From Kiritimatiellia bacterium (GTDB taxonomy: Bacteria > Verrucomicrobiota > Kiritimatiellia > RFP12 > UBA1067): 64,000 bases of DNA. The position numbers and the translations under genes are program-made. Positions 451-55,170 of the stretch are shown in pieces; within the stretch, counting starts at the first letter, position 1; each line of letters starts with the position of its first letter. The stretch lies in the NCBI GenBank assembly GCA_050949565.1, contig JBMNFY010000008.1:224001-288000 (forward strand), written 5' to 3'. Below the pieces are notes generated by a model. The model worked only from the letters and a program-made list of their open reading frames with translations, had not been told where the DNA came from and did not search any database.

Positions 451-600
451 CCTATAACTTACAGCGATCAAGGTTATCTTCATTTAAATGCCAGTGTGAA
501 GCGTGGGCGGCGGGCTAACCAATTACCCGAGATAGAAGTTGAACGTTGAGCGCTGGGCGTTCTTTTGTTACGGTACCCCAAACGCTTTTCACAGGAGAAG

Positions 601-3600
601 ATGCAAATGCGGAAAGTTTATGGGGGAATCGGTCTGCTGCTCGCAACTACGGCGTTATTCGCGTACGCGCAGCAGACTCCGGTCGCAGTATGGCAGGCCT
701 ACGCGGATGACATGGCGCGCCGACCGGGCATGGTGCGTTTCTACACCTTGTTCGACGATGCCACGCAGCAACCCGACCGCGCCGGTTCGGAAAACGTACT
801 GGCCTACCGTCCGTACAAAGGTGCGCCTCTCGCTACCGAACCCGGACGTATCGCCGACCGGACGGCGGTGGTGCTCGACAGTGATTATTTTGAGACCGCG
901 TCCGTTCTCTTCCCCAGCAATGCCTTCACCGTGACCCTCTGGGTGCGTCCGCTCGGTACCGGCACGCAGACCGGCAACGGCGGCAGCGCCAATGGCATGC
1001 TGGCGTGCAGCGGCAGCGGATACACGGACGGCTGGCGTTTGGTCGTTTACGATTGGAAGACGCGTCTGGTCTCTTTTCAAATCGGACGCGAGAAGGGCGC
1101 GATCACGCTCTGCGCCAACGATCCGCTGAGCGCCGGTTTCTGGAACCACCTCGCCGCCACGTGGGACGGCGCTCACATGCGTCTCTACATCAACGGCACC
1201 CTCTCCGCCGAAAGCCCCTATAACGGCACCCTTATCCCGTCGAAATCTTCGCTGAAGATCGGTTTCGCCAACCATGGCGTGGGCTCGTTACGCATGGCGG
1301 TTGACGAATGCGCGCTTTTTGACCGCGCCCTCCCCGCCCCGGCCCTCGCGGCACTTTCGCTGAACGGTGCCCCGCTGAGCGACACGTTGGCTGAGCAGGT
1401 GTGCGCCCTCCAAATGGTCGCCCTTGATTCGGAACGCGCCGCCGACTTCACCCGCGCCGCGCAGAAAATCGCGTCTGACACGCACGCCTCCGCCGCATGG
1501 CGGCATTGGGCCGCGCTGGCTGTCGCGCGTCGAAACGCCGACACCGCAGCATGTGTCGCTTTGGTCGATGACCTTTCTGCGCCGTCCCATCTGCGCGGCA
1601 TGGCGCTCGAAGCACTGACCCAAGCCGCGCGCAAGGGCACAGAATTGCCGAGCCGCGTGCTGGTCAAACTGCCCGAGTATCTGGAGCTTGACGCTGATGA
1701 TCAACGCCTCTTCGCCTTGGCGCTCGCCGACGCCCATGCGCGCGAAGGCAACGTCGATGCCGCCTCGGCCGTTTTCGATCAGCTCCTCTCTTTCCCCGAC
1801 ATGCTGCCGATCGACGCCGCTGAAGTTCGTCAGCGTTGTGCCCGGATCCTGCGGCAAGCCGACCGCTTCGATGCCGCGCGCGACCACTATGCGGCTGTAC
1901 GCGACGACGCGCGTCTGCCCGCGTACGTCCGCGCCATCGCCGCACTCGGTCTGGCGCAGACGTGGCGTCAGGCCGGATGTCTGGAGCAGGCCGAAGCCGC
2001 CTTCCATGACGCAGCCGGTGTGACCAACGCCCCGCCCCATCTGACCGAAGAAGCGCGCGCCTGCGCCGAGGCCTGCGCCAACCTGCGCGCGGGACGCCCG
2101 GCCCGCGACCCGGAGGCTCCCCGCCAACGCCTGCCCGCCCTGCCGCAACCCGCACTCGCCTTCTATGTCTCGCCCAAAGGCGACGATCAAGGCGCGGGAA
2201 CGTTTGAGCAGCCCTTCGCCACACTGGAACGGGCGCGCGACGCGATCCGCGCACAGCGCAAAAATGGCGTCCTGCCGCGCGGTGGCGTCACCGTCTATCT
2301 GCGCGGCGGCACCTATCCGGTCACCAATACCTTCACGCTGACTGAGATCGATTCCGGCAGCAGCGGTGCGCCTGTCGTCTACCGCGCCTGGCGTGATGAA
2401 CGGCCGGTTTTCGACGGCGGTTTCCGCGTGCGCCAACTGCGAACCGTGCGCGACAAAGACGTGCTCGCACGGCTGCCAGCCGAAGCACGCGGCAAGGTGA
2501 AGGTGGCCGACCTCAAGGCGCAGGGTTATCCGTCGTTCGCGCCCCAGCAGAGTTTCGGCTACGGCATCAACAATAAGACGATGCGCGAACTGTTCGAGGA
2601 CGGCCAGCCCCTGACCGTCGCGCGCTGGCCGAACAGCGGCACGGTCATGACCGGCCCGGTGCTTGATTCGACCAACCACGTCTTCACCTTCACCTCTGAG
2701 CGCCTGGCGCGTTGGTCGCAAGCCAAGGACGTTATGGCCAACGGCTACTGGTACCACCTCTGGGCGGTCTGCGCCGTCCCGCTCGGCGTCGACACCGCCG
2801 CCCGCACTTTGACGCTCAGGGAGCGTCCGGGCGGATACGGCGTGCGCGCCGAGCGTCCGTTTTACGTCTTCAACCTGCTGGAGGAGATCGACCAGCCCGG
2901 CGAGTGGTACATGGACAGCGAAACCGGCAATCTGTATGTCTGGCCGAACCGCCACCCTTGGTTCAGCACGCTCGTGCTTTCACGTTGGGACAAGCCCTTC
3001 ATCCAAGCGGATCAGGTGCGCGACGTCGTCTTCCAAGGGTTGACCTTTGAATACGGCCAGCAGCACGGCCTTGTGCTCAATGCCTGCGTCAACACCATCG
3101 TCGCCGGTTGCGTGATCCGCCGCTTGGGCGGCAGCGCGATCATTGCACCCAACAGCGCAAACCTGAAACTGTACGGCAACCGGCTGCACACGTTGGGGCA
3201 CACCGGCATACATGTCGGCGGCGGTAATCGCCGCAACCTCACCTCCGGTCAGGTGCAGATCGAGAACAACGAGGTCCACCACTTCGGCCGCTGCTCCCGC
3301 ACCTACAACCCCGCCGTGCTGCTGGAGGGCTGCGGCGCGCGCGTCGCGTACAACCACTTCCATCACGCGCCGTCCAGCGCCATGCGCATCGAGGGCAACG
3401 ACCACCTGATCGAATACAACGACGTCCACCATGTGGTTCAGGAATCGGACGATCAGGGCGGTATCGACATGTGGTGCAATCCCTCATACCGCGGCGTGGT
3501 GATCCGCTTCAACCGCTGGCGCGACATCGGCGGCGGCGAGCATGTGCCGTGCGGCCAGGCCGGCATTCGCTTTGATGACGCGATCAGCGGCATGTTGGTC

Positions 3601-4059
3601 TACGGCAACCTCTTCGAGCGGACGTCGAACGGCAATTTCGGCGGCGTCCAGATCCACGGTGGCCACAACAACATCATCGATAACAATCTCTTTATCGACT
3701 GCCGCTACGGCGTCAGCTTTTCGCCGTGGGGCCAGAAGCGCTGGACGGAGTTTTTGGGACGCGACCACATCAAGCGGTTGATCTTTACCGATGTTGATGT
3801 CCGCCGCCTCCCCTATTCGCGGCGTTATCCGGAATTGGCCGAACTCGGCACACGCGCCGACCTTAACAGTATCTGGCGCAACGTGTTTGTGAATGCAGAA
3901 GCACCCTACCGTAGAAAGCCGAAAGGTACCGACACATGGGATAATCTGGCGCTTGCCGCAGTACCGGCAAGCGATACCGGCGCGGCGTCGGTTTTCCGTG
4001 CGCTACCGCTCGACGAAATCGGAACGTACGATGACCCATGCGCCGCAGTTGATGAATGA
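601..4059 (+). CDS. Secreted LamG/ConA-like + TPR-like + right-handed parallel beta-helix protein (putative polysaccharide-active)
   Basis: Signal peptide after MQMRK; LamG motif WNHLAATWDG..LYING; FYVSPKGDD..GTFEQPFATLERARDAIR..VYLRGGTY beta-helix entry; start chosen at ATG 601. Confidence 0.85.
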   Translation: MQMRKVYGGIGLLLATTALFAYAQQTPVAVWQAYADDMARRPGMVRFYTLFDDATQQPDRAGSENVLAYRPYKGAPLATEPGRIADRTAVVLDSDYFETASVLFPSNAFTVTLWVRPLGTGTQTGNGGSANGMLACSGSGYTDGWRLVVYDWKTRLVSFQIGREKGAITLCANDPLSAGFWNHLAATWDGAHMRLYINGTLSAESPYNGTLIPSKSSLKIGFANHGVGSLRMAVDECALFDRALPAPALAALSLNGAPLSDTLAEQVCALQMVALDSERAADFTRAAQKIASDTHASAAWRHWAALAVARRNADTAACVALVDDLSAPSHLRGMALEALTQAARKGTELPSRVLVKLPEYLELDADDQRLFALALADAHAREGNVDAASAVFDQLLSFPDMLPIDAAEVRQRCARILRQADRFDAARDHYAAVRDDARLPAYVRAIAALGLAQTWRQAGCLEQAEAAFHDAAGVTNAPPHLTEEARACAEACANLRAGRPARDPEAPRQRLPALPQPALAFYVSPKGDDQGAGTFEQPFATLERARDAIRAQRKNGVLPRGGVTVYLRGGTYPVTNTFTLTEIDSGSSGAPVVYRAWRDERPVFDGGFRVRQLRTVRDKDVLARLPAEARGKVKVADLKAQGYPSFAPQQSFGYGINNKTMRELFEDGQPLTVARWPNSGTVMTGPVLDSTNHVFTFTSERLARWSQAKDVMANGYWYHLWAVCAVPLGVDTAARTLTLRERPGGYGVRAERPFYVFNLLEEIDQPGEWYMDSETGNLYVWPNRHPWFSTLVLSRWDKPFIQADQVRDVVFQGLTFEYGQQHGLVLNACVNTIVAGCVIRRLGGSAIIAPNSANLKLYGNRLHTLGHTGIHVGGGNRRNLTSGQVQIENNEVHHFGRCSRTYNPAVLLEGCGARVAYNHFHHAPSSAMRIEGNDHLIEYNDVHHVVQESDDQGGIDMWCNPSYRGVVIRFNRWRDIGGGEHVPCGQAGIRFDDAISGMLVYGNLFERTSNGNFGGVQIHGGHNNIIDNNLFIDCRYGVSFSPWGQKRWTEFLGRDHIKRLIFTDVDVRRLPYSRRYPELAELGTRADLNSIWRNVFVNAEAPYRRKPKGTDTWDNLALAAVPASDTGAASVFRALPLDEIGTYDDPCAAVDE

Positions 4060-4073
4060 ACGCTCAACCTATT

Positions 4074-4175
4074 GAAAATCTTGCAAAACCCCTTGCGTTC
4101 GGGTGTGGCACGGGCATCTTGCCCGTGTTTCATGGGCGGGACGCCCATGCCACGAGGAGGTTTTGCAAGAGCCTC
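4074..4175 (+). mobile_element. 101-bp-family MITE, intergenic copy (102 bp, eroded left end)
   Basis: TCTTGCAAAACCCC...GTGGCACGGGCATCTTGCCCGTG TTT CATGGGCGGGACGCCCATGCCAC...GGTTTTGCAAGAGCCTC. Confidence 0.9.
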
Positions 4176-7339: not shown

Positions 7340-7681
7340 TAGGCTGGAGGGCGAGCCGCAACCGCGCTGCGCGCGGATTGTGGCACGGGCATCTTGCCCG
7401 TGTGGCGGCGTGAAACGCCGCCGGTCAAGCAGACGCTTGACCCTCCCGGCGCTTCGCGAGCCCGGTCATAGGCTGGAGGGCGAGCGTCCCCGCGAGCCGC
7501 AGCCGCGCTGCGCGCGGATTTAGGATTTAGCCCGCCGCGCGGCTTCGCCGCGAAAAAACCACGGGGTAACTATGACAAAATGTCCAAGTTATAGGTAAGG
7601 ATTTAGGATTTAGGAGCCGCGCCCGCCCGTTTTTACACTCATCCCAGAAAAACCTCTGCGTCTCTGCGCCTCTGCGTTAAA
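7340..7681. repeat. Mosaic intergenic repeat cluster (REP composite, TTAGGAT heptamers, CGCAGAG triad)
   Basis: GTGG-REP 7380-7402, GTGGCGGCG hairpin, inverted GGAG-REP 7423-7446, GGAG-REP 7475-7498; triad at 7652-7681 overlaps the permease stop. Confidence 0.85.
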
Positions 7682-10535
7682 ACCTAATCCGCTCCCGCCT
7701 TCTCACAAGCCACACAATCGGCAGAGCCGCCATCACGACACACAGCGCGAGGGCGAAGCAGACGCCCCGCAGAATGATCCGCCACGGCACGCTCAGCGAA
7801 ACCGGCAGACCGCCGAAGATGAACCAGGCGCGTGTCCAGCCGGTGAAGGTCCAACCGATGCAAAAGCCTGAAAGCAGGCTCAGCACGATGCCGCACAGAC
7901 CGACCAGCAACGCCTCCCCGAGCAACATGCGCCCCAGTTGGCTGCACGTCATGCCAACCGCGCGCATCACGGCGATCTCTTTGGCCGAGGCTTGAAAAGA
8001 GGCGATCAACAGCGTAATGAAACCGGTCGAGAGCACGAGCAACGACCAGAACGGCGCGCGCGCCATGTCGCCGATCAGTTGCGCACCATGCGCGATCGTA
8101 CCGTCTTCGATCTCATCGCGGTGATGCACGCAGACCGTGTTCGCTTCGTCGATATCCAGCGCGTTGCGGATATCCGCCTCCAGCAACTGGCTCCCCTGCA
8201 ACGCCCCCATGCTGCGGTACTCCTTGCTGAGGTTGAGCCACAAAAAATACGTCGTGTCGGTGTTGCCGGTCAGACGACGCGCATCGCGCTCGCTCACGAA
8301 CACAGGCCCCATTGTCATGCCCGACATGCCGTTGCGCCCGCGAAGCCGGGCGCGCGCCGTGACCAAGTGCCAGTTCAAATCCGTCACGCCCACGATCTTG
8401 AAGGCCATCTCCTGAGCCGCTCCGTCCGCCCCGTCCGCGCCGCGCCCGCTCTGCGCCGGCGGACATTTGAGGGTCTTGTCCCCCCCCTTGCTTACAGGTG
8501 TGGCACGGGCATCTTGCCCGTGTTTCATGGGCGGGACGCCCATGCCACGAGGGGCTTTGCAAGAACCTCGCTTGACAATCGTCAGCGTGTCCCCCGCATG
8601 CAGACCGGTTTCGCGTGAAAACATCTTCGTGATTACGCACACCCCACCCTCCGCCATCGCCGCTGCCGCCGCCTGCCGGTCGCCTTCCACAAACCGGAAC
8701 GGTGCCAGCGGTCGCTCCCCGCCGAACGCCGCTTGCGGATCGGTGCCCATCAGCAGCACGTTGGGGCTCTCCGGCAACCGACCCGACACACGCACGACCT
8801 GTGCGGTCAAAGCCTCGGAGAGGTCGAACTGCGCAGCTTCCAGCGCGAGACAGCGACCGCCCTCGACCCCCTTCAACCGCGACACGCCATGGGCCGCTGA
8901 GGCCGGTACGCCATTCGGCAGGATCGAAACAATCGCATCCGGAAATTCATGACTGGGGATAAACGGCGCCATCATCGAACCGCCCCAGATATGGATCGAC
9001 ACAAAGGCACCCAGCCCGACCGCCAACGTGAGCACCATGCCTGCCGTCCGCGAGAAGTGCCGACTGATGCGCCGTCGCAGCAAGTGCGGATCAAGCGCCA
9101 GCATCGCACTCACCGCAGGCGCGGCCGCCCGTTCCATGAGAGAGACAAAACTCGGCAGCACCAGCAACAACCCGAGCACATGCAACGGCAACCCCAGCGC
9201 GAGCAGCAGCACACTGCGCGTCATCGCCGTGATGGGCATCGGCAGCACAAGAACCAGCATCGGAAAGAGCAGGATGAAACCGAGAAGCGATCGTCGCCAC
9301 GAGATCGGTTTGGGCTCATCCTCCTGCTCGGCCAGCGCGTCCAACGGCTTGATGCGCACCGCATGTCGGCACGGCCAAATCAGACTGACCGCAGCCACCA
9401 GCGCCACACCGATCAACGACGAGACCGGCGTCACCCATCCCACGATCACGCCCGCCGGAAACGCATCCGGTGTCCGGGCGACAAATGCCGCGAGAATCAT
9501 CCATCCCGCCGCGAGTCCGACAATCCAGCCCGCGAACGCAACAACCGCGCCCTCCAGCATCACCACCTGCGACACCTGTTTCGCCGTCATACCGGCCGCG
9601 CGCAGCAAGGCCAATACACGCCGCTTCTGCTCGACGCCAATGGTCAGGGCATTGACCAACATGCAGAGCGCCGTCAGGATCGAGAGCGTGAGCAGCAGCG
9701 GTGCCTGCCGCTTGAAGTTCTGTAGCTTGTCACTGGAATACCCCGCCTCCACATCCTTCCGCTCCAGCACCTTATATACCGGCTCCGCCACCGCCTTCAC
9801 ACCCTTGGTATCCGCTCCGTCGCGCAACTTGCAGAGCAGCAGATCGGGCGCCGGATCATAGGTGCCGCCGGACGCCTGCCGCATCGCGCCCAGCGTCACA
9901 AAGGATGTCGGGAACCCCGGCAACGCTTCCTTGAAATCAACGTACGCCGTGATCTTCACCTCCACCGTGCCGGACGGCGTGATCAGCGTCAGCATCGATC
10001 CCAACGGCGGCGGCGTCAGACGGCGCGGCGTGAACACCGCCGTGCAGACCGCCGCTTCCAACGCTTCGCTGGCCGGATCGGGCCAACGCCCCGTGACGGT
10101 GGCCTCGGCATACGGACACCCCGATGTCGCGGCCAAGGTCAGAACCGACACCAGCGGCGGCCCCTGCAGGATGCGTCCGCCGGGACGGTAATCCAGCACC
10201 GTGCGGATCGTCTTGTAGGGGGTCGCCACTTCGACCTCCGGCAGCGCCTGAACGGCCGACACCAGATCCGGCGGCAACGGCTGCGCGACCGACGACCGTC
10301 CCACTTGCCGCATCATCGTTTTGCGGTCCGGCCGGACACCCACATGGCCGGCCGACACCCAGCAGGTGTAGGGCGCCGTCATGCGCCGCACCCGCTCCCG
10401 GCTCTGTCCCGCCGAGGTCACGACAAGCCCCAGCGACCAGACAAAGAGCCCCGTCGCCGCCGCCACGCCGAGCGCGGCGGTGCCCAGCCGTATCTTCTCG
10501 TACCGCAGGCTCTTGAGCACCAGTTTGAGGATCAT
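7677..10535 (-). CDS. ABC transporter permease, FtsX/MacB type (duplicated), carrying an in-frame MITE
   Basis: Two FtsX-like TM blocks (LALLRAAGMT..QV; IAVMRAVGMT..QL); coupled to the upstream ATPase. Confidence 0.9.
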   Translation of the reverse strand: MILKLVLKSLRYEKIRLGTAALGVAAATGLFVWSLGLVVTSAGQSRERVRRMTAPYTCWVSAGHVGVRPDRKTMMRQVGRSSVAQPLPPDLVSAVQALPEVEVATPYKTIRTVLDYRPGGRILQGPPLVSVLTLAATSGCPYAEATVTGRWPDPASEALEAAVCTAVFTPRRLTPPPLGSMLTLITPSGTVEVKITAYVDFKEALPGFPTSFVTLGAMRQASGGTYDPAPDLLLCKLRDGADTKGVKAVAEPVYKVLERKDVEAGYSSDKLQNFKRQAPLLLTLSILTALCMLVNALTIGVEQKRRVLALLRAAGMTAKQVSQVVMLEGAVVAFAGWIVGLAAGWMILAAFVARTPDAFPAGVIVGWVTPVSSLIGVALVAAVSLIWPCRHAVRIKPLDALAEQEDEPKPISWRRSLLGFILLFPMLVLVLPMPITAMTRSVLLLALGLPLHVLGLLLVLPSFVSLMERAAAPAVSAMLALDPHLLRRRISRHFSRTAGMVLTLAVGLGAFVSIHIWGGSMMAPFIPSHEFPDAIVSILPNGVPASAAHGVSRLKGVEGGRCLALEAAQFDLSEALTAQVVRVSGRLPESPNVLLMGTDPQAAFGGERPLAPFRFVEGDRQAAAAAMAEGGVCVITKMFSRETGLHAGDTLTIVKRGSCKAPRGMGVPPMKHGQDARATPVSKGGDKTLKCPPAQSGRGADGADGAAQEMAFKIVGVTDLNWHLVTARARLRGRNGMSGMTMGPVFVSERDARRLTGNTDTTYFLWLNLSKEYRSMGALQGSQLLEADIRNALDIDEANTVCVHHRDEIEDGTIAHGAQLIGDMARAPFWSLLVLSTGFITLLIASFQASAKEIAVMRAVGMTCSQLGRMLLGEALLVGLCGIVLSLLSGFCIGWTFTGWTRAWFIFGGLPVSLSVPWRIILRGVCFALALCVVMAALPIVWLVRRRERIRF
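8469..8569 (+). mobile_element. 101-bp MITE read in frame (antisense) inside the permease
   Basis: GAGGGTCTTG...GCAAGAACCTC; translated as RGSCKAPRGMGVPPMKHGQDARATPVSKGGDKTL. Confidence 0.92.
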
Positions 10536-18457: not shown

Positions 18458-19598
18458 GGGGTCGTAGTTTGACATTAGACATTCGAGAGTTGCGGAGCGT
18501 TTTCTCGATGTGGTAATGTATCGCCATGGCAAGACAACTGAGGCACCACTATGCGGGGGGATGGTATCACATCACCAGCCGGGGCATGGGGCGGATGGCG
18601 ATCTTTATCGATGACCGCGACCGCGAGCACTTCGTGGAGTTGCTGTCCGAGATGGTCGAGCGTTACGGGGTCGTGCTACACGCCTACGTGCTGATGGATA
18701 ATCACTACCATCTGCTGATCGAGACACCTACCGCTAATGCGAGCCGGGCACTGCAATGGCTGAACCTGAGCCACAGCATGTGGTTCAAAACTCGGCATGG
18801 CCACGCGGGGTCTGTTTTTCAGGCGCGTTTCAAGAGCATCCCCGTCGAGGATGCTGGCTCGTGGGCGCTGACGTGCAGCGTGTACATCCACCTGAACCCC
18901 GTGCGGATCAAAGCGCTGGGGCTCGGCAAAGAGGATCGTGCGATGGAGAAGGCGGCACTCCCGCCTGAAGGGCCACCCAAAGAGCTGGTGCGCGCGCGGC
19001 TGGCCAAACTGCGGGGCTATCGGTGGAGTTCTTACCGAGCGTACGCGGGTTATGCGCCGTCTCCGGAATGGCTGACCTGCGCGACGCTCTGGGAGCGTTG
19101 TTGTCCGGCGGCCGAAGACCCAAAAATGGAATACCGCCGGCATCTGGAGGACTATCTGCGACAGGGTGTCGGGGAGGACCTGTTCGCCAGAATCAGTGCT
19201 GCAGTCGCCATCGGCGGGGCGGCTTTCGTCGAAAACCTGCGCAAGAGAGTACCGAGGCGGGCGCGCGGCGAGACGAACGCGCGCGCATGGCGCAGGATGT
19301 TGCCGTTCGACGAGGTCGTGCGCGCGGTCGAGTCGGTCAAGGGCATGGGATGGGCTGACTTTGCTGAACGCAGGGGCGACTGGGGCCGTGACTTGGCTCT
19401 GTACATCGGGAGGATGCGGTGCGGACTGACGTTGAAGGAACTCGGAGCACAGGCTGGCGGGTTGAGCGTGCCCGCAGTTGCCAAGGCAGTCGAACGGATG
19501 GCGGCGCGGCTGAAAAACGACAAAGCCTTGCATCGGTCGGCGGCACACGTATTAAAGTTACTGGAAAAACGAAATGTCTAATGTCAAACTACGACCCC
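18458..19598 (+). mobile_element. Autonomous Y1-HUH (RAYT-like) element bounded by perfect 26-bp inverted repeats
   Basis: GGGGTCGTAGTTTGACATTAGACATT at 18458-18483 and its exact reverse complement at 19573-19598, overlapping the transposase stop. Confidence 0.92.
18526..19581 (+). CDS. IS200-like Y1 HUH transposase (RAYT-related) with C-terminal DnaA_C/TrpR-like HTH
   Basis: YHITSRG, HUH motif MDNHYHLL, catalytic Tyr in YIHLNPVR, WSSYRAY, C-terminal GLTLKELGAQAGGLSVPAVAKAVERM. Confidence 0.92.
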   Translation: MARQLRHHYAGGWYHITSRGMGRMAIFIDDRDREHFVELLSEMVERYGVVLHAYVLMDNHYHLLIETPTANASRALQWLNLSHSMWFKTRHGHAGSVFQARFKSIPVEDAGSWALTCSVYIHLNPVRIKALGLGKEDRAMEKAALPPEGPPKELVRARLAKLRGYRWSSYRAYAGYAPSPEWLTCATLWERCCPAAEDPKMEYRRHLEDYLRQGVGEDLFARISAAVAIGGAAFVENLRKRVPRRARGETNARAWRRMLPFDEVVRAVESVKGMGWADFAERRGDWGRDLALYIGRMRCGLTLKELGAQAGGLSVPAVAKAVERMAARLKNDKALHRSAAHVLKLLEKRNV

Positions 19599-20621: not shown

Positions 20622-20875
20622 GGGGTCGTAGTTTGACATTAGACATTCGAGAGTTGCGGAGCGTTTTTGTGGTATGGTAATGCATCGTCATGGCAAGGCA
20701 ACTGAGGCACCACCGAAAGGATGGCGGCGTGTCTGGAAAAACGAAATGTCTAATGAGGGTCTTGCAAAACCCCTTGCTTGCAGGTGTGGCACGGGCATCT
20801 TGCCCGTGTCTCATGGGCGGGACGCCCATGCCACGAGGGGTTTTGCAAGAGCCTCTAATGTCAAACTACGACCCC
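20622..20875 (+). mobile_element. MITE-2 of the Y1 element; right IR interrupted by a 101-bp MITE
   Basis: Left IR 20622-20647; ATGGCAAGGCAACTGAGGCACCAC fused to the transposase 3' end; right IR split as AATGTCTAAT[insert]GTCAAACTACGACCCC. Confidence 0.92.
20755..20855 (+). mobile_element. 101-bp MITE with 19-bp TIRs and TAAT target duplication
   Basis: GAGGGTCTTGCAAAACCCC ... GGGGTTTTGCAAGAGCCTC; TAAT at 20751-20754 and 20856-20859. Confidence 0.95.
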
Positions 20876-50180: not shown

Positions 50181-50357
50181 AAGGAGAATTTAGGGGGGCC
50201 TAAGCGAAAGAATCGATGGAGGGATGGACACAACCGAGCCGGTCTTATATTATTCTCAACGTGACAGCGCGGTGTGATCGGGTCGTCTGTGAAGAGCGAA
50301 AAAGGTGTTCGTCGCCCCATGAACTTTCCGAAAACCCGCCACGCTCAAGTTTTTGTT

Positions 50358-53300
50358 ATGGCGACACTTTCTGACATCCGTGTGCATGAAGTCGAGTTCT
50401 GCGCCGATATCAAATCTGCGGCTGACGCTCTCTTTGCCGCGCATCCCGAATGGCCGTTCTCGCACGCCAAAATTGAACAGCGTGGCGTGGGCAATAATAA
50501 ACGCAACGACCTGCGCATCTTCCGCAAAGGTCATAAAGCCCCGCTGCTTTCCGGTGAAGTCAAGATGCCGGGAACCCCTGAAGGCCGTTCGCCCTATAAT
50601 CCGGCCCTTATGAACGATGCGGCATCAAAGGCGGATAACGCCGGCAGTGCCTACTTCTTCACTTGGAACGTCAACCAGTTCGTGCTGTTTGACCGCAGCA
50701 AGTTCAATCTTCCGATCATCGAACGCCGATGCCATGACTGGGACCTCGGTCTCCAACTGCGGCGTTCCGCCGATTGCAGCCGTCCCGAAGTGATGTCTGC
50801 CATCACGACCCGTTTCTTGCCGGAACTCTTTGCATTGCTGGCCCGCATCGTCACGGAGGACTTCACCGAATGGGGCATGCCCCCGGATGAGCTTTTCATC
50901 CGCTCCCTCGAAAGTCATCTTGCCTGGCCCATCATGGGCACCAGCGATTATCTGGAAGCCACATGCCGTACCGACAAAGCCTTTTCCGCAAAGCTCCAGG
51001 CGTGGATGGCCGGCGACATGTCGTGGACCTTCGACCCGGACAATCCCGACAACTGGCGGCAGACTCTCGACCGTGCCGCCAGCACGCTCTGCTATGTTTT
51101 CTGCAACCGCGCTATATTCTACGAAGCCATCCGCGCGCGTTACCCAGACAACCTTGCGCCGCTCACCATGCCGACCGGCAAACGCGGCCACGAAGGTATC
51201 TACGAGTGGTTCCGCATCCAGTTTCTTCACGCCGTCAACGAGAGCGGCGATTACGAGCCCATCTTTTATCCTGATGTTGCCGACAAAGTCGGTTCGCTCG
51301 TTTTCGCAGACCCCATGGCCCGCCAGGGCTGGCGTGGCGTTTTCGAGAACTTGGCCCACTACAATTTCCGGGACATCCCTTACGACATTATCGGCGGTAT
51401 CTTCCAGCGGCTTATTGCTCCCGAGGAACGCCAGAAATTCGGACAGTTTTTCACCGGTGAAGACATCGTCGATATCATCAACTCTTTCTGCATCCACCGT
51501 GCCGCCGACAAGGTTCTCGATCCCGCATGCGGTTCTGGCAGCTTTCTAATTCGTGCCTACCATCGCAAGGCTTGGTTGAGCGCACGACGACACGCGCGTC
51601 AGCGGAATGCGGATTCTCACCTGACACATCAGGAGCTACTGGCTGACATCTACGGTTGCGACATCGCCCTCTTCGCGGCTCATCTGGCCACGCTCAACCT
51701 TGCCGCCCGCCAGATCAACGACGAGGAGAACTACCCCTACATCGCCCGCAGCAACTTCTTTGAAGTCATTGAAAACCGCGACGCCTTCTACCGCGTTCCC
51801 GCCGGCCTGCGCAATCCAGACGGCACACGGGATTACAAGGACGTTCCGCTCCCCAACATGGACGCCATCATCGGCAATCCTCCCTATATCCGTCAGGAAG
51901 CCATCGCGAAGCGTGCGGGACTCAAGCGCCGCCGAGACGAAACGAAAGCCGCCTTCGAATCCCGCGCCAAAAATACCAAGGAACATTTCCAGGAACTTGT
52001 TGCCAGACTTTGGCCCGGTCTCAAAATGAGCGGGCGCAGTGACCTTCATTGCTACTTCTGGCCGGTCGCCGCCTCTCTGCTCAATGATGGCGGCTACTTT
52101 GGCTTCCTGACCTCGTCGAGCTGGCTGGACGTTGAATACGGGTTCGCCCTCCAGCGCTGGTGCCTGCAAAATTTCAAGGTCGTTGCCATCATGGAAAGTC
52201 TGGACGAGCCTTGGTTCCCCGATGCACGCGTCAAAACCGCCATCACGATCCTTCAGCGCACCGACGACCCCGCCGCCCGCGATAGCAACCTCGTCCGTTT
52301 TGTACGTTTCTCAAAACCGGTTACTGAAGTGCTTGGCGAACGGAACAGCACCGACGAATCGGCCCGCCAGTCCGCCGCTGACCGCCTGCGCAAACTCATC
52401 CTTGGCACCGCCGGCCCGAAGCAGAACGAGCCCCTTGCCGTCCACACCACCGCTCAGCTTCGCATCATCACCCTGCGCCAGTCCGACCTTTGGCAGGAAG
52501 GTGTCCGCGCTTGGGACATCCTTAAGAAAGGGACGGACGCTACGGAGTCGCCATTAGAAGAAGACGAAACGACGGAAGAAACACTTGAAGAGGAAGCCGA
52601 AGAGACCGCCTCAACTGACGACACATTTACGAGGGTCTTGCAAAACCCCTTGCCTACAGGTGTGGCACGGGCATCTTGCCCGTGTTTCATGGGCGGGACG
52701 CCCATGCCACAAGGGGGGTTGCAAGCGCCTCTTACGCTCGGCGCTGCCGCGCCCGACTATGCCGCCGGAAAATGGGGCCGTTTTCTGCGCGCCCCCGACA
52801 TCTACTTCAAGCTGATCCACGACTACAGGGACCGCTTTGTCCGTCTCGGCGAGATTGCTGATGTTCGCTTTGGTATCAAAAGCGGCTGTGACGCCTTTTT
52901 CATGCCGCGTGACGTGACCGACGAGATTCTCGCACGTGTTGAGAAGGGCGTCCTTTGGAACGACATCGGTCTGATAACCCATTGTAGCCGTCGCGATGTC
53001 GAAAACGGTAAGGTCCGCATCATTTGTGCCGGCGACAAAACCATCCATCCCATTGAAGCGGAGTTCATCCGTCCCGAAGTCCACAGTCTCATGGAAGTCG
53101 ACCGGCCGATCGTCCGCACCGCCGACTGTAAGCGCGTGGTTCTCTGGGTCAATCAGGAACTTAAGGACATCGCCGATACCTACGCCGCCAAATACATCCG
53201 CTGGGGCGCCAAGCAAACCTTTACCTCGAAGAAATCCAAACCCGTCAAAGTTCCAGAGCGTTCAACATGTGCCGCGCGGGAGCGTTGGTATGATATTACG

Positions 53301-54359
53301 ACGGATAAAATCGGAATCGCGTTCTGGCCCAAAACGCAACAGTACCGGCACATGGCTCCAACAAATCCGGAAGGAATAGTCTGTAATTGCAACTTGTACA
53401 CAGTGGTGCCGACATTTGAAGATGCAACTGCCTGTACTGCCCTGAATGCAGTCCTGAACTGCACCATAGTTGCGCTATTGAAATGCTTTTATGGCAGATA
53501 TGCTGGAACTGAGGGTGCCCTGAAAACCGAGGTTGTGGACGCTCTTATGCTTGAGATTCCTGATCCACGTTCTGCATCTGAACACGTAACAGCAAGGATG
53601 ACTAACGCTTTGCGTCAAATGGGAACACGCCCTGTCACACATCTGGTTCAGGAGTCGATGCTTCAGTGCCATGACGAAACTCACATGCGCGAAATTCTTG
53701 AGCGCCCGGTCGAGTTGTCAAACGAACTCCGCCAGCCAGACCGCCGTGCCTTGGACGATGCGGTATTCGAAATGATTGAGGTCGAGGATCCCAAGGAACG
53801 CGCACACCTTATTGACGAACTGTACGAGCAGACAGCCAGTTATTACCGGCAACAGCGTACGCTTGAAATACAGGGCATGCGCAATCGCTCCAAAGCCGGC
53901 CGCAAGCAAATGTCTCCACGCGACCTTGCAGCCAGCGTCTGGGACTCCCTCAAGCCCGAAGAGCGCGGCGAGCCGGTCATGGAATGGATTAAGAGCCGTT
54001 GGCCCGGCGGCATTGAAGTCAGCATTCCCGACGGCAAACCCACGGCCCGCGGCAGTGACGACATGTTCAGTCCGGCCTCCGTCAACTTCAAGCAGGGCGC
54101 GAAGGCGATTGAAATGGACTATGCCAGTCCCGAACATGCCGCCCTTGTTGTCGCTCTCGCCGAACTCGAAATCCGTGGTTCCGTTACGCTTCCGGACACT
54201 GCTGCGGCGTGCCAGGAGTGTCGCGAACAGCTTGCCGCCCGTCTTGAAGGTGCCCGCGCCCGTTTTACCGAACTCGCCGCCTCCCGCACCGGTCAAGAAT
54301 CCATGCGGGAGCAAGTTGTCTTCATCTTGCTCCAATGGCTCATCCACGGCAATGCGTGA
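50358..54359 (+). CDS. Type IIG-like fused restriction endonuclease/N6-methyltransferase carrying an in-frame MITE
   Basis: N-terminal RNDL..GEVK nuclease motif; ERQKFGQFFT, VLDPACGSGSFL, IIGNPPYIRQE; C-terminal TRD; start ATG 50358 preferred. Confidence 0.9.
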   Translation: MATLSDIRVHEVEFCADIKSAADALFAAHPEWPFSHAKIEQRGVGNNKRNDLRIFRKGHKAPLLSGEVKMPGTPEGRSPYNPALMNDAASKADNAGSAYFFTWNVNQFVLFDRSKFNLPIIERRCHDWDLGLQLRRSADCSRPEVMSAITTRFLPELFALLARIVTEDFTEWGMPPDELFIRSLESHLAWPIMGTSDYLEATCRTDKAFSAKLQAWMAGDMSWTFDPDNPDNWRQTLDRAASTLCYVFCNRAIFYEAIRARYPDNLAPLTMPTGKRGHEGIYEWFRIQFLHAVNESGDYEPIFYPDVADKVGSLVFADPMARQGWRGVFENLAHYNFRDIPYDIIGGIFQRLIAPEERQKFGQFFTGEDIVDIINSFCIHRAADKVLDPACGSGSFLIRAYHRKAWLSARRHARQRNADSHLTHQELLADIYGCDIALFAAHLATLNLAARQINDEENYPYIARSNFFEVIENRDAFYRVPAGLRNPDGTRDYKDVPLPNMDAIIGNPPYIRQEAIAKRAGLKRRRDETKAAFESRAKNTKEHFQELVARLWPGLKMSGRSDLHCYFWPVAASLLNDGGYFGFLTSSSWLDVEYGFALQRWCLQNFKVVAIMESLDEPWFPDARVKTAITILQRTDDPAARDSNLVRFVRFSKPVTEVLGERNSTDESARQSAADRLRKLILGTAGPKQNEPLAVHTTAQLRIITLRQSDLWQEGVRAWDILKKGTDATESPLEEDETTEETLEEEAEETASTDDTFTRVLQNPLPTGVARASCPCFMGGTPMPQGGLQAPLTLGAAAPDYAAGKWGRFLRAPDIYFKLIHDYRDRFVRLGEIADVRFGIKSGCDAFFMPRDVTDEILARVEKGVLWNDIGLITHCSRRDVENGKVRIICAGDKTIHPIEAEFIRPEVHSLMEVDRPIVRTADCKRVVLWVNQELKDIADTYAAKYIRWGAKQTFTSKKSKPVKVPERSTCAARERWYDITTDKIGIAFWPKTQQYRHMAPTNPEGIVCNCNLYTVVPTFEDATACTALNAVLNCTIVALLKCFYGRYAGTEGALKTEVVDALMLEIPDPRSASEHVTARMTNALRQMGTRPVTHLVQESMLQCHDETHMREILERPVELSNELRQPDRRALDDAVFEMIEVEDPKERAHLIDELYEQTASYYRQQRTLEIQGMRNRSKAGRKQMSPRDLAASVWDSLKPEERGEPVMEWIKSRWPGGIEVSIPDGKPTARGSDDMFSPASVNFKQGAKAIEMDYASPEHAALVVALAELEIRGSVTLPDTAAACQECREQLAARLEGARARFTELAASRTGQESMREQVVFILLQWLIHGNA
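52631..52731 (+). mobile_element. 101-bp MITE inserted in frame (sense) with TTAC target duplication
   Basis: TTAC at 52627-52630 and 52732-52735; translated as RVLQNPLPTGVARASCPCFMGGTPMPQGGLQAPLT. Confidence 0.95.
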
Positions 54360-55170
54360 CTGAGGGACAGGTATTTGGAATTTGGGATTTGTGATTTAGG
54401 TGCCGCAAGTCGCAAGTCGCGGGTCAACCTCTCTTGTTGCGACCACGCAGTGGCTCGCAACCGTGAGAATAAAAGCGCTGCTCGGGCTTTTGGAACCGCC
54501 AAGACGCCATGGACGCCAAGGTTTTTTGGGCATGGCTCGGGATTATTTAACGCAGAGGCGCAGAGGCGCAGAGATTTTTTATTGCTCGGGTTTTTAATCA
54601 CGAAACACACGGAATACGCGGAAAGGCACGGCACTGTTTTCTGCTTTCGTGTGGTTCGTGCGTGACTAAGGGACAGGTATTTAGACCGCCGAAAAGTGCA
54701 AGCCAGACACCAGACTTGCGCCGCGCGACGTGGCACGGGCATCTTGCCCGTGTGGCGGCGTAACCGCCGCCCGGACAAGCGACGCTTGTCCCTCCCGTCC
54801 TTACTTGAGCGTTAAAAGTTGAGCGTTGGGCGTTGGACGTTTTTAACTCTGAACTCTGAACGTCGAACTCTGAACTCTGAAGGTGAAAACTCCTTGTCTG
54901 TTGCGTGACTAAGGGACAGGTATTTAGACCGCCGAAAAGTGCAAGCCAGACACCAGACTTGCGCCGCGCGACGTGGCACGGGCATCTTGCCCGTGTGGCG
55001 GCGTATCCGCCGCCCGGACAAGCGACGCTTGTCCCTCCCAGCGCTCCGCAGACCCGACCATGGGCTGGAGGGCGAGCGTCCCCGCGAGCCGCCCTCCGTG
55101 CTGCGCGCGGGGGGAAAGCGGTGCCGCGACCGGCCTATTGCCTGCTGCCCATGCCTATTACCTATTACTT
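54353..55170 (+). repeat. Large mosaic array punctuated by three TGCGTGACTRAGGGACAGGTATTT repeats, including a 137-bp direct duplication
   Basis: 24-mers at 54353, 54659 and 54902; 54660-54796 duplicated at 54903-55039; triads at 54495-54625. Confidence 0.88.

Follow-up and report, generated by a model that had tools for sequence, protein, structure and literature searches.

The in-frame insertion of short repeats into protein-coding genes is a known kind of event, already published for RPE, BRE and ERIC elements. RPEs are attributed to Ogata et al. (2000, 2002) in the excerpted parts of a review (PMC10969869) and of PMC1779305, and the same parts of the review place nearly half of the first-described RPEs within ORFs (PMC10969869). 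The excerpts of Delihas (2011, PMC3184786) report in-frame fusions with ORFs, internal or at the 3' or 5' end, for BRE in beta-proteobacteria, Bordetella among them, and for BOX, RUP and SPRITE in pneumococcus. Intragenic ERIC, YPAL and RU elements are also counted there among the small in-frame repeats.

We analysed a window (the whole stretch of 64,000 nucleotides) from the 4.66-Mb, 60% G+C genome of an uncultured wastewater bacterium, labelled G000. A preliminary description of this DNA had reported four copies of a short repeat, two of them with clean 4-bp target duplications (TSD) and two translated in opposite orientations. All four were found and can be aligned; they lie on the + strand and measure 102, 101, 101 and 101 bp. 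The first (4074..4175) is intergenic, between same-strand ORFs, and starts 15 nt past the stop of the ORF at 565-4059. It has no TSD, and its left-arm variant (GAAAATC...) is similar to the arm of the IS tails described below. The second intergenic copy (20755..20855) is exactly abutted by the TSD TAAT (20751-20754 and 20856-20859). The copy at 52631..52731, abutted just as exactly by TTAC (left 52627..52630, right 52732-52735), lies in the gene of a type IIG/IIL-like restriction-modification (R-M) enzyme of 1361 aa (50274..54359, + strand), with Eco57I, N6_Mtase and MmeI_Mtase domains in residues 373-642. It is read in sense as ~35 residues (TRVLQNPL...QGGLQAPL), starting at residue 786 behind an acidic linker. 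The copy at 8469..8569, which has an altered left arm and no TSD, is read antisense (SCKAPRGMGVPPMKHGQDARATPVSKGGDKTLK) in the gene of a MacB-type ABC permease of 952 aa (7677..10535, - strand; FtsX x2, MacB_PCD). In both host genes the ORF is continuous.

An HMM trained on the four window copies retrieved 249 non-redundant loci genome-wide, far more than chance would give: 76 solo full-length copies, 12 IS tails and 161 partial copies. The family has the attributes of a MITE. It is short, non-coding and multi-copy, with 88 full-length loci, 51 of which have the modal length of 101 bp. Its ~19-bp ends are complementary, as expected of terminal inverted repeats. Exact 4-bp direct repeats abut the nominal ends of 33 of the 76 solo copies, whereas the displaced control, with 35 complete-end copies, gave 0; no target-site consensus was found across the TSDs. 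Since the 4-bp TSD adds to the 101 bp, the modal insertion is 105 nt, exactly 35 codons, and this sum is observed in 53 of the 76 solo copies. The ends, duplications and modal insertion agree with the preliminary description.

We detected a partner IS with the same ends as the element, in 11 copies of 1650-1722 bp (~1.65 kb) in G000. Its 371-aa ORF has DDE_Tnp_1 and DUF772 domains, both passing the Pfam cut-offs. The curated models do not assign it to the IS5 or IS1182 families, as the transposase falls under the cut-off of every NCBIfam IS family model (best matches IS1182, 90.4 bits for a cut-off of 270, and IS5, 69.9 bits for a cut-off of 140). Homologous ISs with identical ends occur in four other genomes (G029, G132, G051 and G034; 72-83% aa identity). 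There is also evidence of movement. Three copies in the related genome G004 correspond to empty or near-empty sites in G000, with GATG and CAGG each present as a single copy at the empty sites, and one copy is filled in G002 and empty in G000. The element is a true MITE: it has inverted ends, a 4-bp TSD and empty sites in related genomes. Judging from the common ends, it is most likely moved in trans by the IS transposase. The TSDs of the IS itself are irregular (of 10 assessable copies, 3 have exactly 4 bp and another 3 have 5-7 bp), and a close homolog of the transposase was found in only 5 of the 16 other genomes with MITE DNA, the assemblies being incomplete. The IS of G000 terminates in a whole MITE-like tail of 102 bp, which is lacking in the ISs of its relatives. 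Hence, the history of the IS and the MITE is not simple.

Between the two ends lies a core of two inverted REP-like hairpins of ~21 nt, near-invariant in all copies (in the R-M gene, A at 52664-52684 and B at 52688-52708, i.e. 52664..52708). Repeats of this kind, the REP/REPIN elements, were reportedly described with their RAYT transposases by Bertels and Rainey in 2011. The element might accordingly be a REPIN, with a Y1 (RAYT-type) transposase moving it in place of the DDE transposase. Searched with a loose pattern for such hairpins, the genome gave 452 matches, and a reversed-genome control 3. Cores also occur alone, in tandem and joined to other arm modules. For example, a solitary hairpin-A unit lies just 3' of the permease gene (7382..7402, + strand), and further solitary units lie 3' of the R-M gene (54732-54752 and 54975-54995). 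The genome has seven Y1_Tnp matches, including a 351-aa ORF with an IS200-like domain in the window (18526..19581, + strand), a candidate REP-associated transposase only. Another match is a segment amid 24 hairpins, yet within a split R-M gene. We find a REPIN origin of the element very improbable, because its full copies have 4-bp TSDs and share identical ends with a DDE-type IS. IS200/IS605-type Y1 transposases are not known to duplicate the target site, which clashes with these TSDs. The solitary cores may nevertheless be of REPIN origin.

We observed in-frame full copies of the MITE in five intact genes, encoding the R-M enzyme, the MacB-type permease, SbcD, a class-I fumarase and an alpha/beta hydrolase. 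All five are 101 bp long, they use three different reading frames, and at least two partial copies are in frame as well. As in RPEs, an in-frame insertion in an intact gene is combined, in these five genes, with its absence from orthologs. We found orthologs without the insert for the R-M enzyme (in G137), the permease (8), the fumarase (12) and the alpha/beta hydrolase (5); for the latter three, the G004 ortholog has the insert. The G004 ortholog of SbcD has it too, and the matches of four more distant orthologs end at residues 308-319, just before the insert. For both host proteins of the window, orthologs show the gap that the preliminary description had predicted where the insert sits. Five genomes of the same genus (56-89% complete) yielded no R-M protein. 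The expectation that genic copies preserve the frame was also borne out: we found zero frame-disrupted genes, three cases of a 'different frame' being adjacent genes. A further classifier match (C17 1422834) was discarded as a genic copy; the ORF spanning it runs antisense to a real gene, whose stop is immediately followed by the element.

If the host genes were dead or mis-called, there would be no read-through. We regard this as extremely improbable, as the reading frames are intact in two species and Pfam domains flank the inserts on both sides or span them. The dN/dS between G000 and G004 is 0.12, 0.23 and 0.10 in the three host genes tested (308-923 codons), which are thus under purifying selection. 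A second R-M-like gene (G000:C10) is indeed split, the one observation in favour of dead genes. Sampled words of the DNA were present at 98% in 17 DNA runs and at 22-26% in two RNA runs. Contigs from the RNA runs cover the flanks of the R-M gene only, at a depth of 2-4; no contig crosses a junction of the element, and none joins the two sides with the element left out. In the structural model of the fumarase (mean pLDDT 79.3), the sole segment below 50 is residues 132-169, i.e. the insert, which is predicted to form a disordered or floppy loop of 35 residues.

Only 5 of the 76 solo copies are internal to genes, against 59% of random positions passed through the same classifier (coding density 84.6%). 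Genic copies are depleted about ten-fold. This bears on the proposal of the preliminary description that selection shaped the length and the stop-poor sequence of the element for colonising coding DNA and donating peptides. Its reading of the stops was accurate: the plus strand is stop-free and the minus-strand stops share one frame (counts per frame of 0,0,0,2,0,0 in copy 52631). The consensus, with five of six frames open, is unusual relative to a palindrome-preserving null (P = 0.014), and five open frames are found in 1.1% of mononucleotide shuffles (P = 0.011). Against dinucleotide shuffles (10.8%, P = 0.108) and random 101-mers of the same genome (10.5%, P = 0.105) the element looks ordinary, which partly matches the refutation set out in the preliminary description. 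Just 38 of the 88 full-length copies have at least five open frames. The prevalence of 105-nt insertions and the use of three frames by the five internal copies are also consistent with such selection. A length of 3n arises by chance one time in three. Given the unremarkable frames and the strong depletion, selection for colonising coding DNA seems improbable to us.

The fate of the peptide points in the same direction, since it does not form a protein family and is disordered in the model. A full HMMER scan against 1.84 billion representatives yielded 40 matches, mostly to ORFs under 125 aa; it is unsuited as a census of hosts, because insert-free cluster heads stand for them. A word-index search with a 40-aa insert peptide returned seven proteins, one of which is the fumarase, while three others have the peptide at the end of the ORF. 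Five other MITE-rich genomes gave 158 peptide matches. The 20 of these whose open frames are longest are mostly located upstream of the real start of the gene. Pfam scans of six of the 20 revealed one plausible internal case, a peptidase U32 (L104), and a combination of GH16 and beta-lactamase (L089) that is possibly a gene fusion.

The orthologous copies have changed very slowly. Between G000 and G004, 14 of 1307 positions differ in the copies and 650 of 10400 in their flanks; between G000 and G002, the counts are 13 of 1216 and 582 of 7135. The copies are thus ~1% divergent and the flanks 6-8%, in a comparison that draws throughout on metagenome bins, two of them related to each other (G002 and G004), and on flanks that contain some fast-changing intergenic DNA. 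At synonymous sites the species differ by 10-23%, and inside three genes we found no synonymous difference in the insert where 10.3 were expected (P = 3e-5). By region, 2 of 765 core positions and 13 of 750 arm positions differ. Homogenisation of the arms is unlikely, because 69 copy-specific variants are common to orthologs and only 12 are not; for the core, gene conversion among ~240 near-identical cores may have operated. A purely selfish, decaying element would not be predicted to change so slowly.

This slow divergence suggests a role of the hairpin core in the cell. Selection could preserve the inserted copies, whether intergenic or genic, as structured DNA or RNA (e.g. as a hairpin that stabilises mRNA or binds a protein), with the peptide as a tolerated by-product. 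Such retention is under discussion for REP and ERIC elements, and it is compatible with the origin as a MITE. It would account for the low divergence of the copies, the missing synonymous changes and the contrast between core and arms. The element also folds strongly (-67.7 kcal/mol, z = -7.4 relative to 200 shuffles), and 51 of 66 intergenic copies lie between same-strand genes, a setting that makes up 60% of the intergenic length. The caveats given above on kinship, bins, flanks and gene conversion weigh against it, and the RNA-run contigs give it no support across the junctions. A Rfam scan of 52400-52950 revealed no match to the element, just a chance snoRNA-like match outside it (E = 0.64). 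Among 71 distinct copies, the 22 pairs are 99.2% canonical with 0 compensatory cells, a test that the near-invariant core makes uninformative. A literature search on the conservation of ERIC copies, with supplementary files outside its scope, returned only unrelated papers. We regard retention as structured DNA or RNA as possible, if on balance unlikely. That the inserted copies, including those in genes, are held near-unchanged by selection on the nucleic acid itself is, in our view, more doubtful still. If true, the genic copies would be structured RNA or DNA modules placed in coding sequence at domain boundaries. The hairpins could then, for instance, cause ribosomes to pause, govern the stability of the mRNA or serve as binding sites for a host protein, at the price of the 35-residue loop.

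Overall, we think it highly probable that this is an IS-derived MITE with a REP-like double hairpin, whose genic copies reflect survivorship and a 3n length due to chance, with no demonstrated adaptation. The element is a non-autonomous DNA transposon, its two 19-bp ends being the terminal inverted repeats of the 1.65-kb IS, which encodes an IS5/IS1182-type DDE transposase. The double hairpin takes the place of a gene between these ends. The IS transposase probably acts on the element in trans, and the 4-bp target duplication is made on insertion. Stop codons are scarce in it, as in many stretches of this 60% G+C genome, and genic insertion would therefore usually keep the frame open. Nearly all genic insertions would nevertheless be lost, and the survivors would lie in variable loops or inter-domain linkers able to tolerate a disordered loop of 35 residues.

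Outside Rickettsia and the proteobacteria, this provides a clean and well-bounded case in which working enzymes gain peptide loops from a transposon. How the element jumps can be identified from the IS-matching ends, the duplication and the empty sites. Selection can be quantified, with about nine-tenths of the genic insertions missing and survivors in variable loops. For annotation, the element accounts for short 'hypothetical proteins' in their dozens and for several ORFs that extend too far. Beyond the known kind of event, inserted DNA that changes far slower than its surroundings is the sole result that could lead further.

Our literature search for miniature inverted-repeat elements in Kiritimatiellia, which left supplementary files outside its scope, returned no papers, and the closest comparisons are with other clades. 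Like RPEs, as presented in the excerpted parts of PMC10969869 and PMC1779305, the element is a palindromic interspersed repeat in the range of 100-150 bp, present in intergenic and protein-coding DNA. In both systems the insertions are in frame, the host protein gains a peptide, and the inserts are judged compatible with the fold. The share of copies within ORFs is far from that given for RPEs in the same excerpts, with only 5 of 76 solo copies here. The element has clear inverted-repeat ends, a 4-bp TSD and an identified IS partner, and it resides in a free-living bacterium of the Kiritimatiellia type (60% G+C) and not in an intracellular one with a reduced genome. The number of genes with BRE inside, ~9 in the excerpts of PMC3184786, is similar to the five full and at least two partial copies found here. 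BRE, BOX, RUP, SPRITE, ERIC, YPAL and RU are other sequence families from other phyla and, for most of them, these excerpts describe no transposase partner with identical ends (PMC3184786).

With REP/REPIN elements, the MITE shares an inverted doublet of short G+C-rich hairpins, occurring hundreds of times, alone and in tandem, in a genome with Y1_Tnp genes. The doublet is here packaged within DDE-type IS ends and inserts with a TSD, the RAYT link being only a candidate one. In ends and enzyme, there is a resemblance to IS5/IS1182 and their MITEs, with DDE_Tnp_1 and DUF772 domains, short inverted ends, a small TSD and a MITE bearing the ends of the IS. The transposase scores under the curated cut-offs (90 bits vs 270 for IS1182, 70 vs 140 for IS5), and the interior of the MITE is an unrelated hairpin module and not the remnant of a deleted IS.

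The element is a true MITE (a miniature transposable element bounded by inverted repeats) with an identified partner insertion sequence (IS). The four copies noticed in the window (at 4074, 8469, 20755 and 52631) align over ~101 bp between unrelated flanks. We measured them at 102, 101, 101 and 101 bp and found that TAAT and TTAC border two of them as 4-bp target duplications. The preliminary description was also accurate on the element's stop-codon pattern and on the two host open reading frames (ORFs), which are uninterrupted: a restriction-modification (R-M) enzyme (50274-54359, plus strand; Eco57I, N6_Mtase and MmeI_Mtase domains) and a MacB-type ABC permease (7677-10535, minus strand; FtsX and MacB_PCD). 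The host genome (G000; 4.66 Mb, 21 contigs, 60% G+C), whose contig C8 contains the window at 224001-288000, was searched on both strands with an HMM built from the four copies. Once redundancy was removed, the 374 hits left 249 loci, of which 161 are partial and 88 full length. Among the full-length loci, 51 measure exactly 101 bp; 76 are solo, and 12 share an identical left flank, being the final 102 bp of a larger repeat. An exact 4-bp direct repeat borders the nominal ends of 33/76 solo copies, and of 19 among the 35 whose model ends are complete; in those 35, a control 4-mer displaced by four bases never matched (0/35). There is no consensus among the 4-mers duplicated around solo copies. 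The window stretch is present in wastewater, digester and bioreactor metagenomes, and MITE DNA occurs in 17 of the 151 genomes sampled from the order; outside G000, its full-length identity is 78-93%.

The larger repeat is an IS of 1650-1722 bp, present in 11 copies in G000, which starts with the left end of the MITE and ends with its right end. Its 371-aa ORF carries DDE_Tnp_1 and DUF772, and its best NCBIfam models, IS1182 and IS5, both score below cut-offs. Four other genomes of the order (G029, G132, G051 and G034; loci L083-L086) encode homologs with 72-83% identity, in ~1.6-kb units with the same ends, which are plain and lack the hairpin core of the MITE. Because these ISs share the ends but not the core, the MITE is a pair of IS ends around a foreign module and not a deletion remnant. 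The IS of G000 has gained a whole MITE-like tail: it (L016 / L082, C6 about 200125-201775) terminates in a complete 102-bp tail of this kind, whose inner left end is degenerate. Movement was checked by comparing twenty element sites of a congener (G004) with G000. Thirteen have filled orthologous sites. For three further copies the G000 site is empty or near-empty, two of these with a single 4-mer (GATG, CAGG), and the site of one copy from another genome (G002) is likewise empty there. One 25.7-kb contig of G004 (C19; L040/L041) matches five G000 contigs in blocks of 0.5-8.5 kb; either the two species are heavily rearranged relative to each other, or this bin contig is chimeric.

We searched for copies inside genes with a dicodon coding score trained on long ORFs, requiring that a frame stay open through the element and that both flanks carry coding signal; 5/88 full-length copies passed. 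One was a false positive, its ORF being antisense and the element sitting just past a gene's stop, and a copy in an alpha/beta hydrolase gene was added after inspection. Three copies scored as having coding sequence on either side, but in different frames, simply lie between adjacent genes; for two of the three, the upstream ORF stops at the element or within it. By a crude gene call (3064 genes, 84.6% coding), 10 solo copies fall within genes: five are internal, three sit at the extreme 3' end and give read-through at the C terminus, and two are at the extreme 5' end, where gene starts are probably over-extended. The internal copies are all 101 bp long and use three reading frames, those of the R-M enzyme and hydrolase being in sense in two different frames, and those of the permease, SbcD and fumarase in one common antisense frame. 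All five are in frame, and we saw no frame-disrupted gene among the G000 copies classified. Partial copies are read through in three more genes, encoding an Exo_endo_phos protein, a second FtsX permease and a split MmeI-like protein, where they form 21-codon tandem arrays. At G000:C11:6409-6511, C7:242791-242890, C2:17609-17709, C13:15119-15219 and C17:347367-347467, the upstream gene ends within the element or shortly past it, so that the element provides its C-terminal residues or its stop codon. In another genome (L089, G064:C30:9970-15470), ORF 1761-3830 joins GH16 and beta-lactamase-fold domains in one frame across a copy of the MITE, which may have mediated a gene fusion; alternatively, these may be two genes with a lost stop.

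Outside G000 and G004, the orthologs compared for the R-M enzyme, permease, fumarase and hydrolase lack the insert. For the R-M enzyme a single ortholog was found, in G137 (57-68% identity), and it lacks a block of 37 residues at the acidic linker. The other four inserts are common to G000 and G004. Eight orthologs of the permease (97% identical between the two) have a variable G/R-rich loop or nothing. In SbcD, the insert separates the Metallophos domain from SbcD_C, and matches to four distant orthologs end at residues 308-319, just before it. The hydrolase (L062 / L018, G000:C4:128441-130330) has ~62 extra residues relative to five orthologs: the MITE, then about 27-30 further residues, which G004 shares and the five orthologs lack. 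For fumarase, the same position is occupied by different low-complexity inserts in two congeners, and by nothing or by short unrelated inserts in another ten genomes. An AlphaFold model of this protein on a 14-sequence alignment has a mean pLDDT of 79.3, and its sole segment below 50 (residues 132-169) is the insert, predicted to lie without secondary structure between two strands; the low value may partly come from the thin alignment at that segment. In at least four other genomes (L022, L023, L024 and L028), unrelated inserts of low complexity occupy this loop, between CHFEQ and EVWLLQKGGG (alignment L020-L033); it is a recurrent site of landing or expansion. For G000 vs G004, the host genes show a dS of 0.10-0.23 and a dN/dS of 0.10-0.23, and are therefore functional. 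Working proteins thus tolerate at least five in-frame MITE copies in their loops and linkers.

Is the element built for coding DNA, as had been suggested? Five of the six frames of the consensus are open, and how frequent this property is depends on the null model: at least five frames are open in 1.1% of mononucleotide and 1.4% of palindrome-preserving shuffles, and in 10.8% of dinucleotide shuffles and 10.5% of random 101-mers of G000. Only 38/88 full-length copies have at least five open frames, and the stop-poorness of the element is ordinary for G000. In 53/76 solo copies, length plus four is a multiple of three; a 3n length has a prior chance of one in three. The classifier used for the genic copies assigns 59% of random positions to genes vs 5/76 solo copies, so selection acts strongly against the element in genes. 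Adaptive design for coding DNA is not upheld.

Beyond the first reading, the core is modular. It spans model positions about 31-81 and consists of two similar hairpins of 21 nt (A and B), arranged as an inverted doublet. A loose hairpin pattern matches 452 times in G000 vs 3 in the reversed genome, and the core is found alone, attached to other arm modules, and in tandem with a period of about 58-63. Just 3' of the permease (window 7382-7402) and R-M (54732-54752, 54975-54995) genes there are solitary hairpin-A units, in a terminator-like position without an obvious T-run. At G000:C17:1052823-1055066, four identical cores spaced by 729 bp, each followed by a T-run, sit within a larger tandem repeat. 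G000 has seven matches to Y1_Tnp, an IS200-like transposase domain, one inside the window and another among 24 hairpins within the split MmeI-like gene; a link of the cores to REP-associated transposases (RAYTs) is possible. This second R-M-type gene (L081, also L075; G000:C10:217000-226000; MmeI_hel, MmeI_Mtase, MmeI_TRD) is split between methyltransferase motifs by 63-bp in-frame hairpin arrays (21-codon units, x3 and x4). The interruption also holds the Y1_Tnp segment, in the same frame, with one stop after it.

Also worth following beyond the first reading is the slow change of inserted DNA. In metagenome bins, with G002 and G004 being kin and flanks including fast intergenic DNA, 13 copies orthologous between G000 and G004 differ at 14/1307 element positions (flanks 650/10400), and 12 copies orthologous between G000 and G002 at 13/1216 (flanks 582/7135). 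Over 15 pairs, with the SbcD and fumarase copies added, arms differ at 13/750 positions and cores at 2/765. The 105 element codons of the three genes tested have no synonymous differences vs 10.3 expected (P = 3e-5). Sixty-nine copy-specific variants are common to orthologs vs 12 that are not, which makes homogenisation among copies an unlikely explanation for the arms. Intergenic copies lie between same-strand genes in 51/66 cases vs 60% of intergenic length by the crude gene call. ERIC copies were reportedly found to be similarly conserved by Wilson and Sharp in 2006.

In-frame insertion of a MITE into genes is a known kind of event. A 2024 review (PMC10969869) calls in-frame repeat insertions 'not unusual', with Rickettsia palindromic elements (RPEs) as the extreme case. 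Delihas (PMC3184786) lists internal fusions for RPE, BOX and BRE, the last in about 9 genes, and another study (PMC1779305) describes RPEs of 100-150 bp as plentiful in both intergenic and coding DNA.
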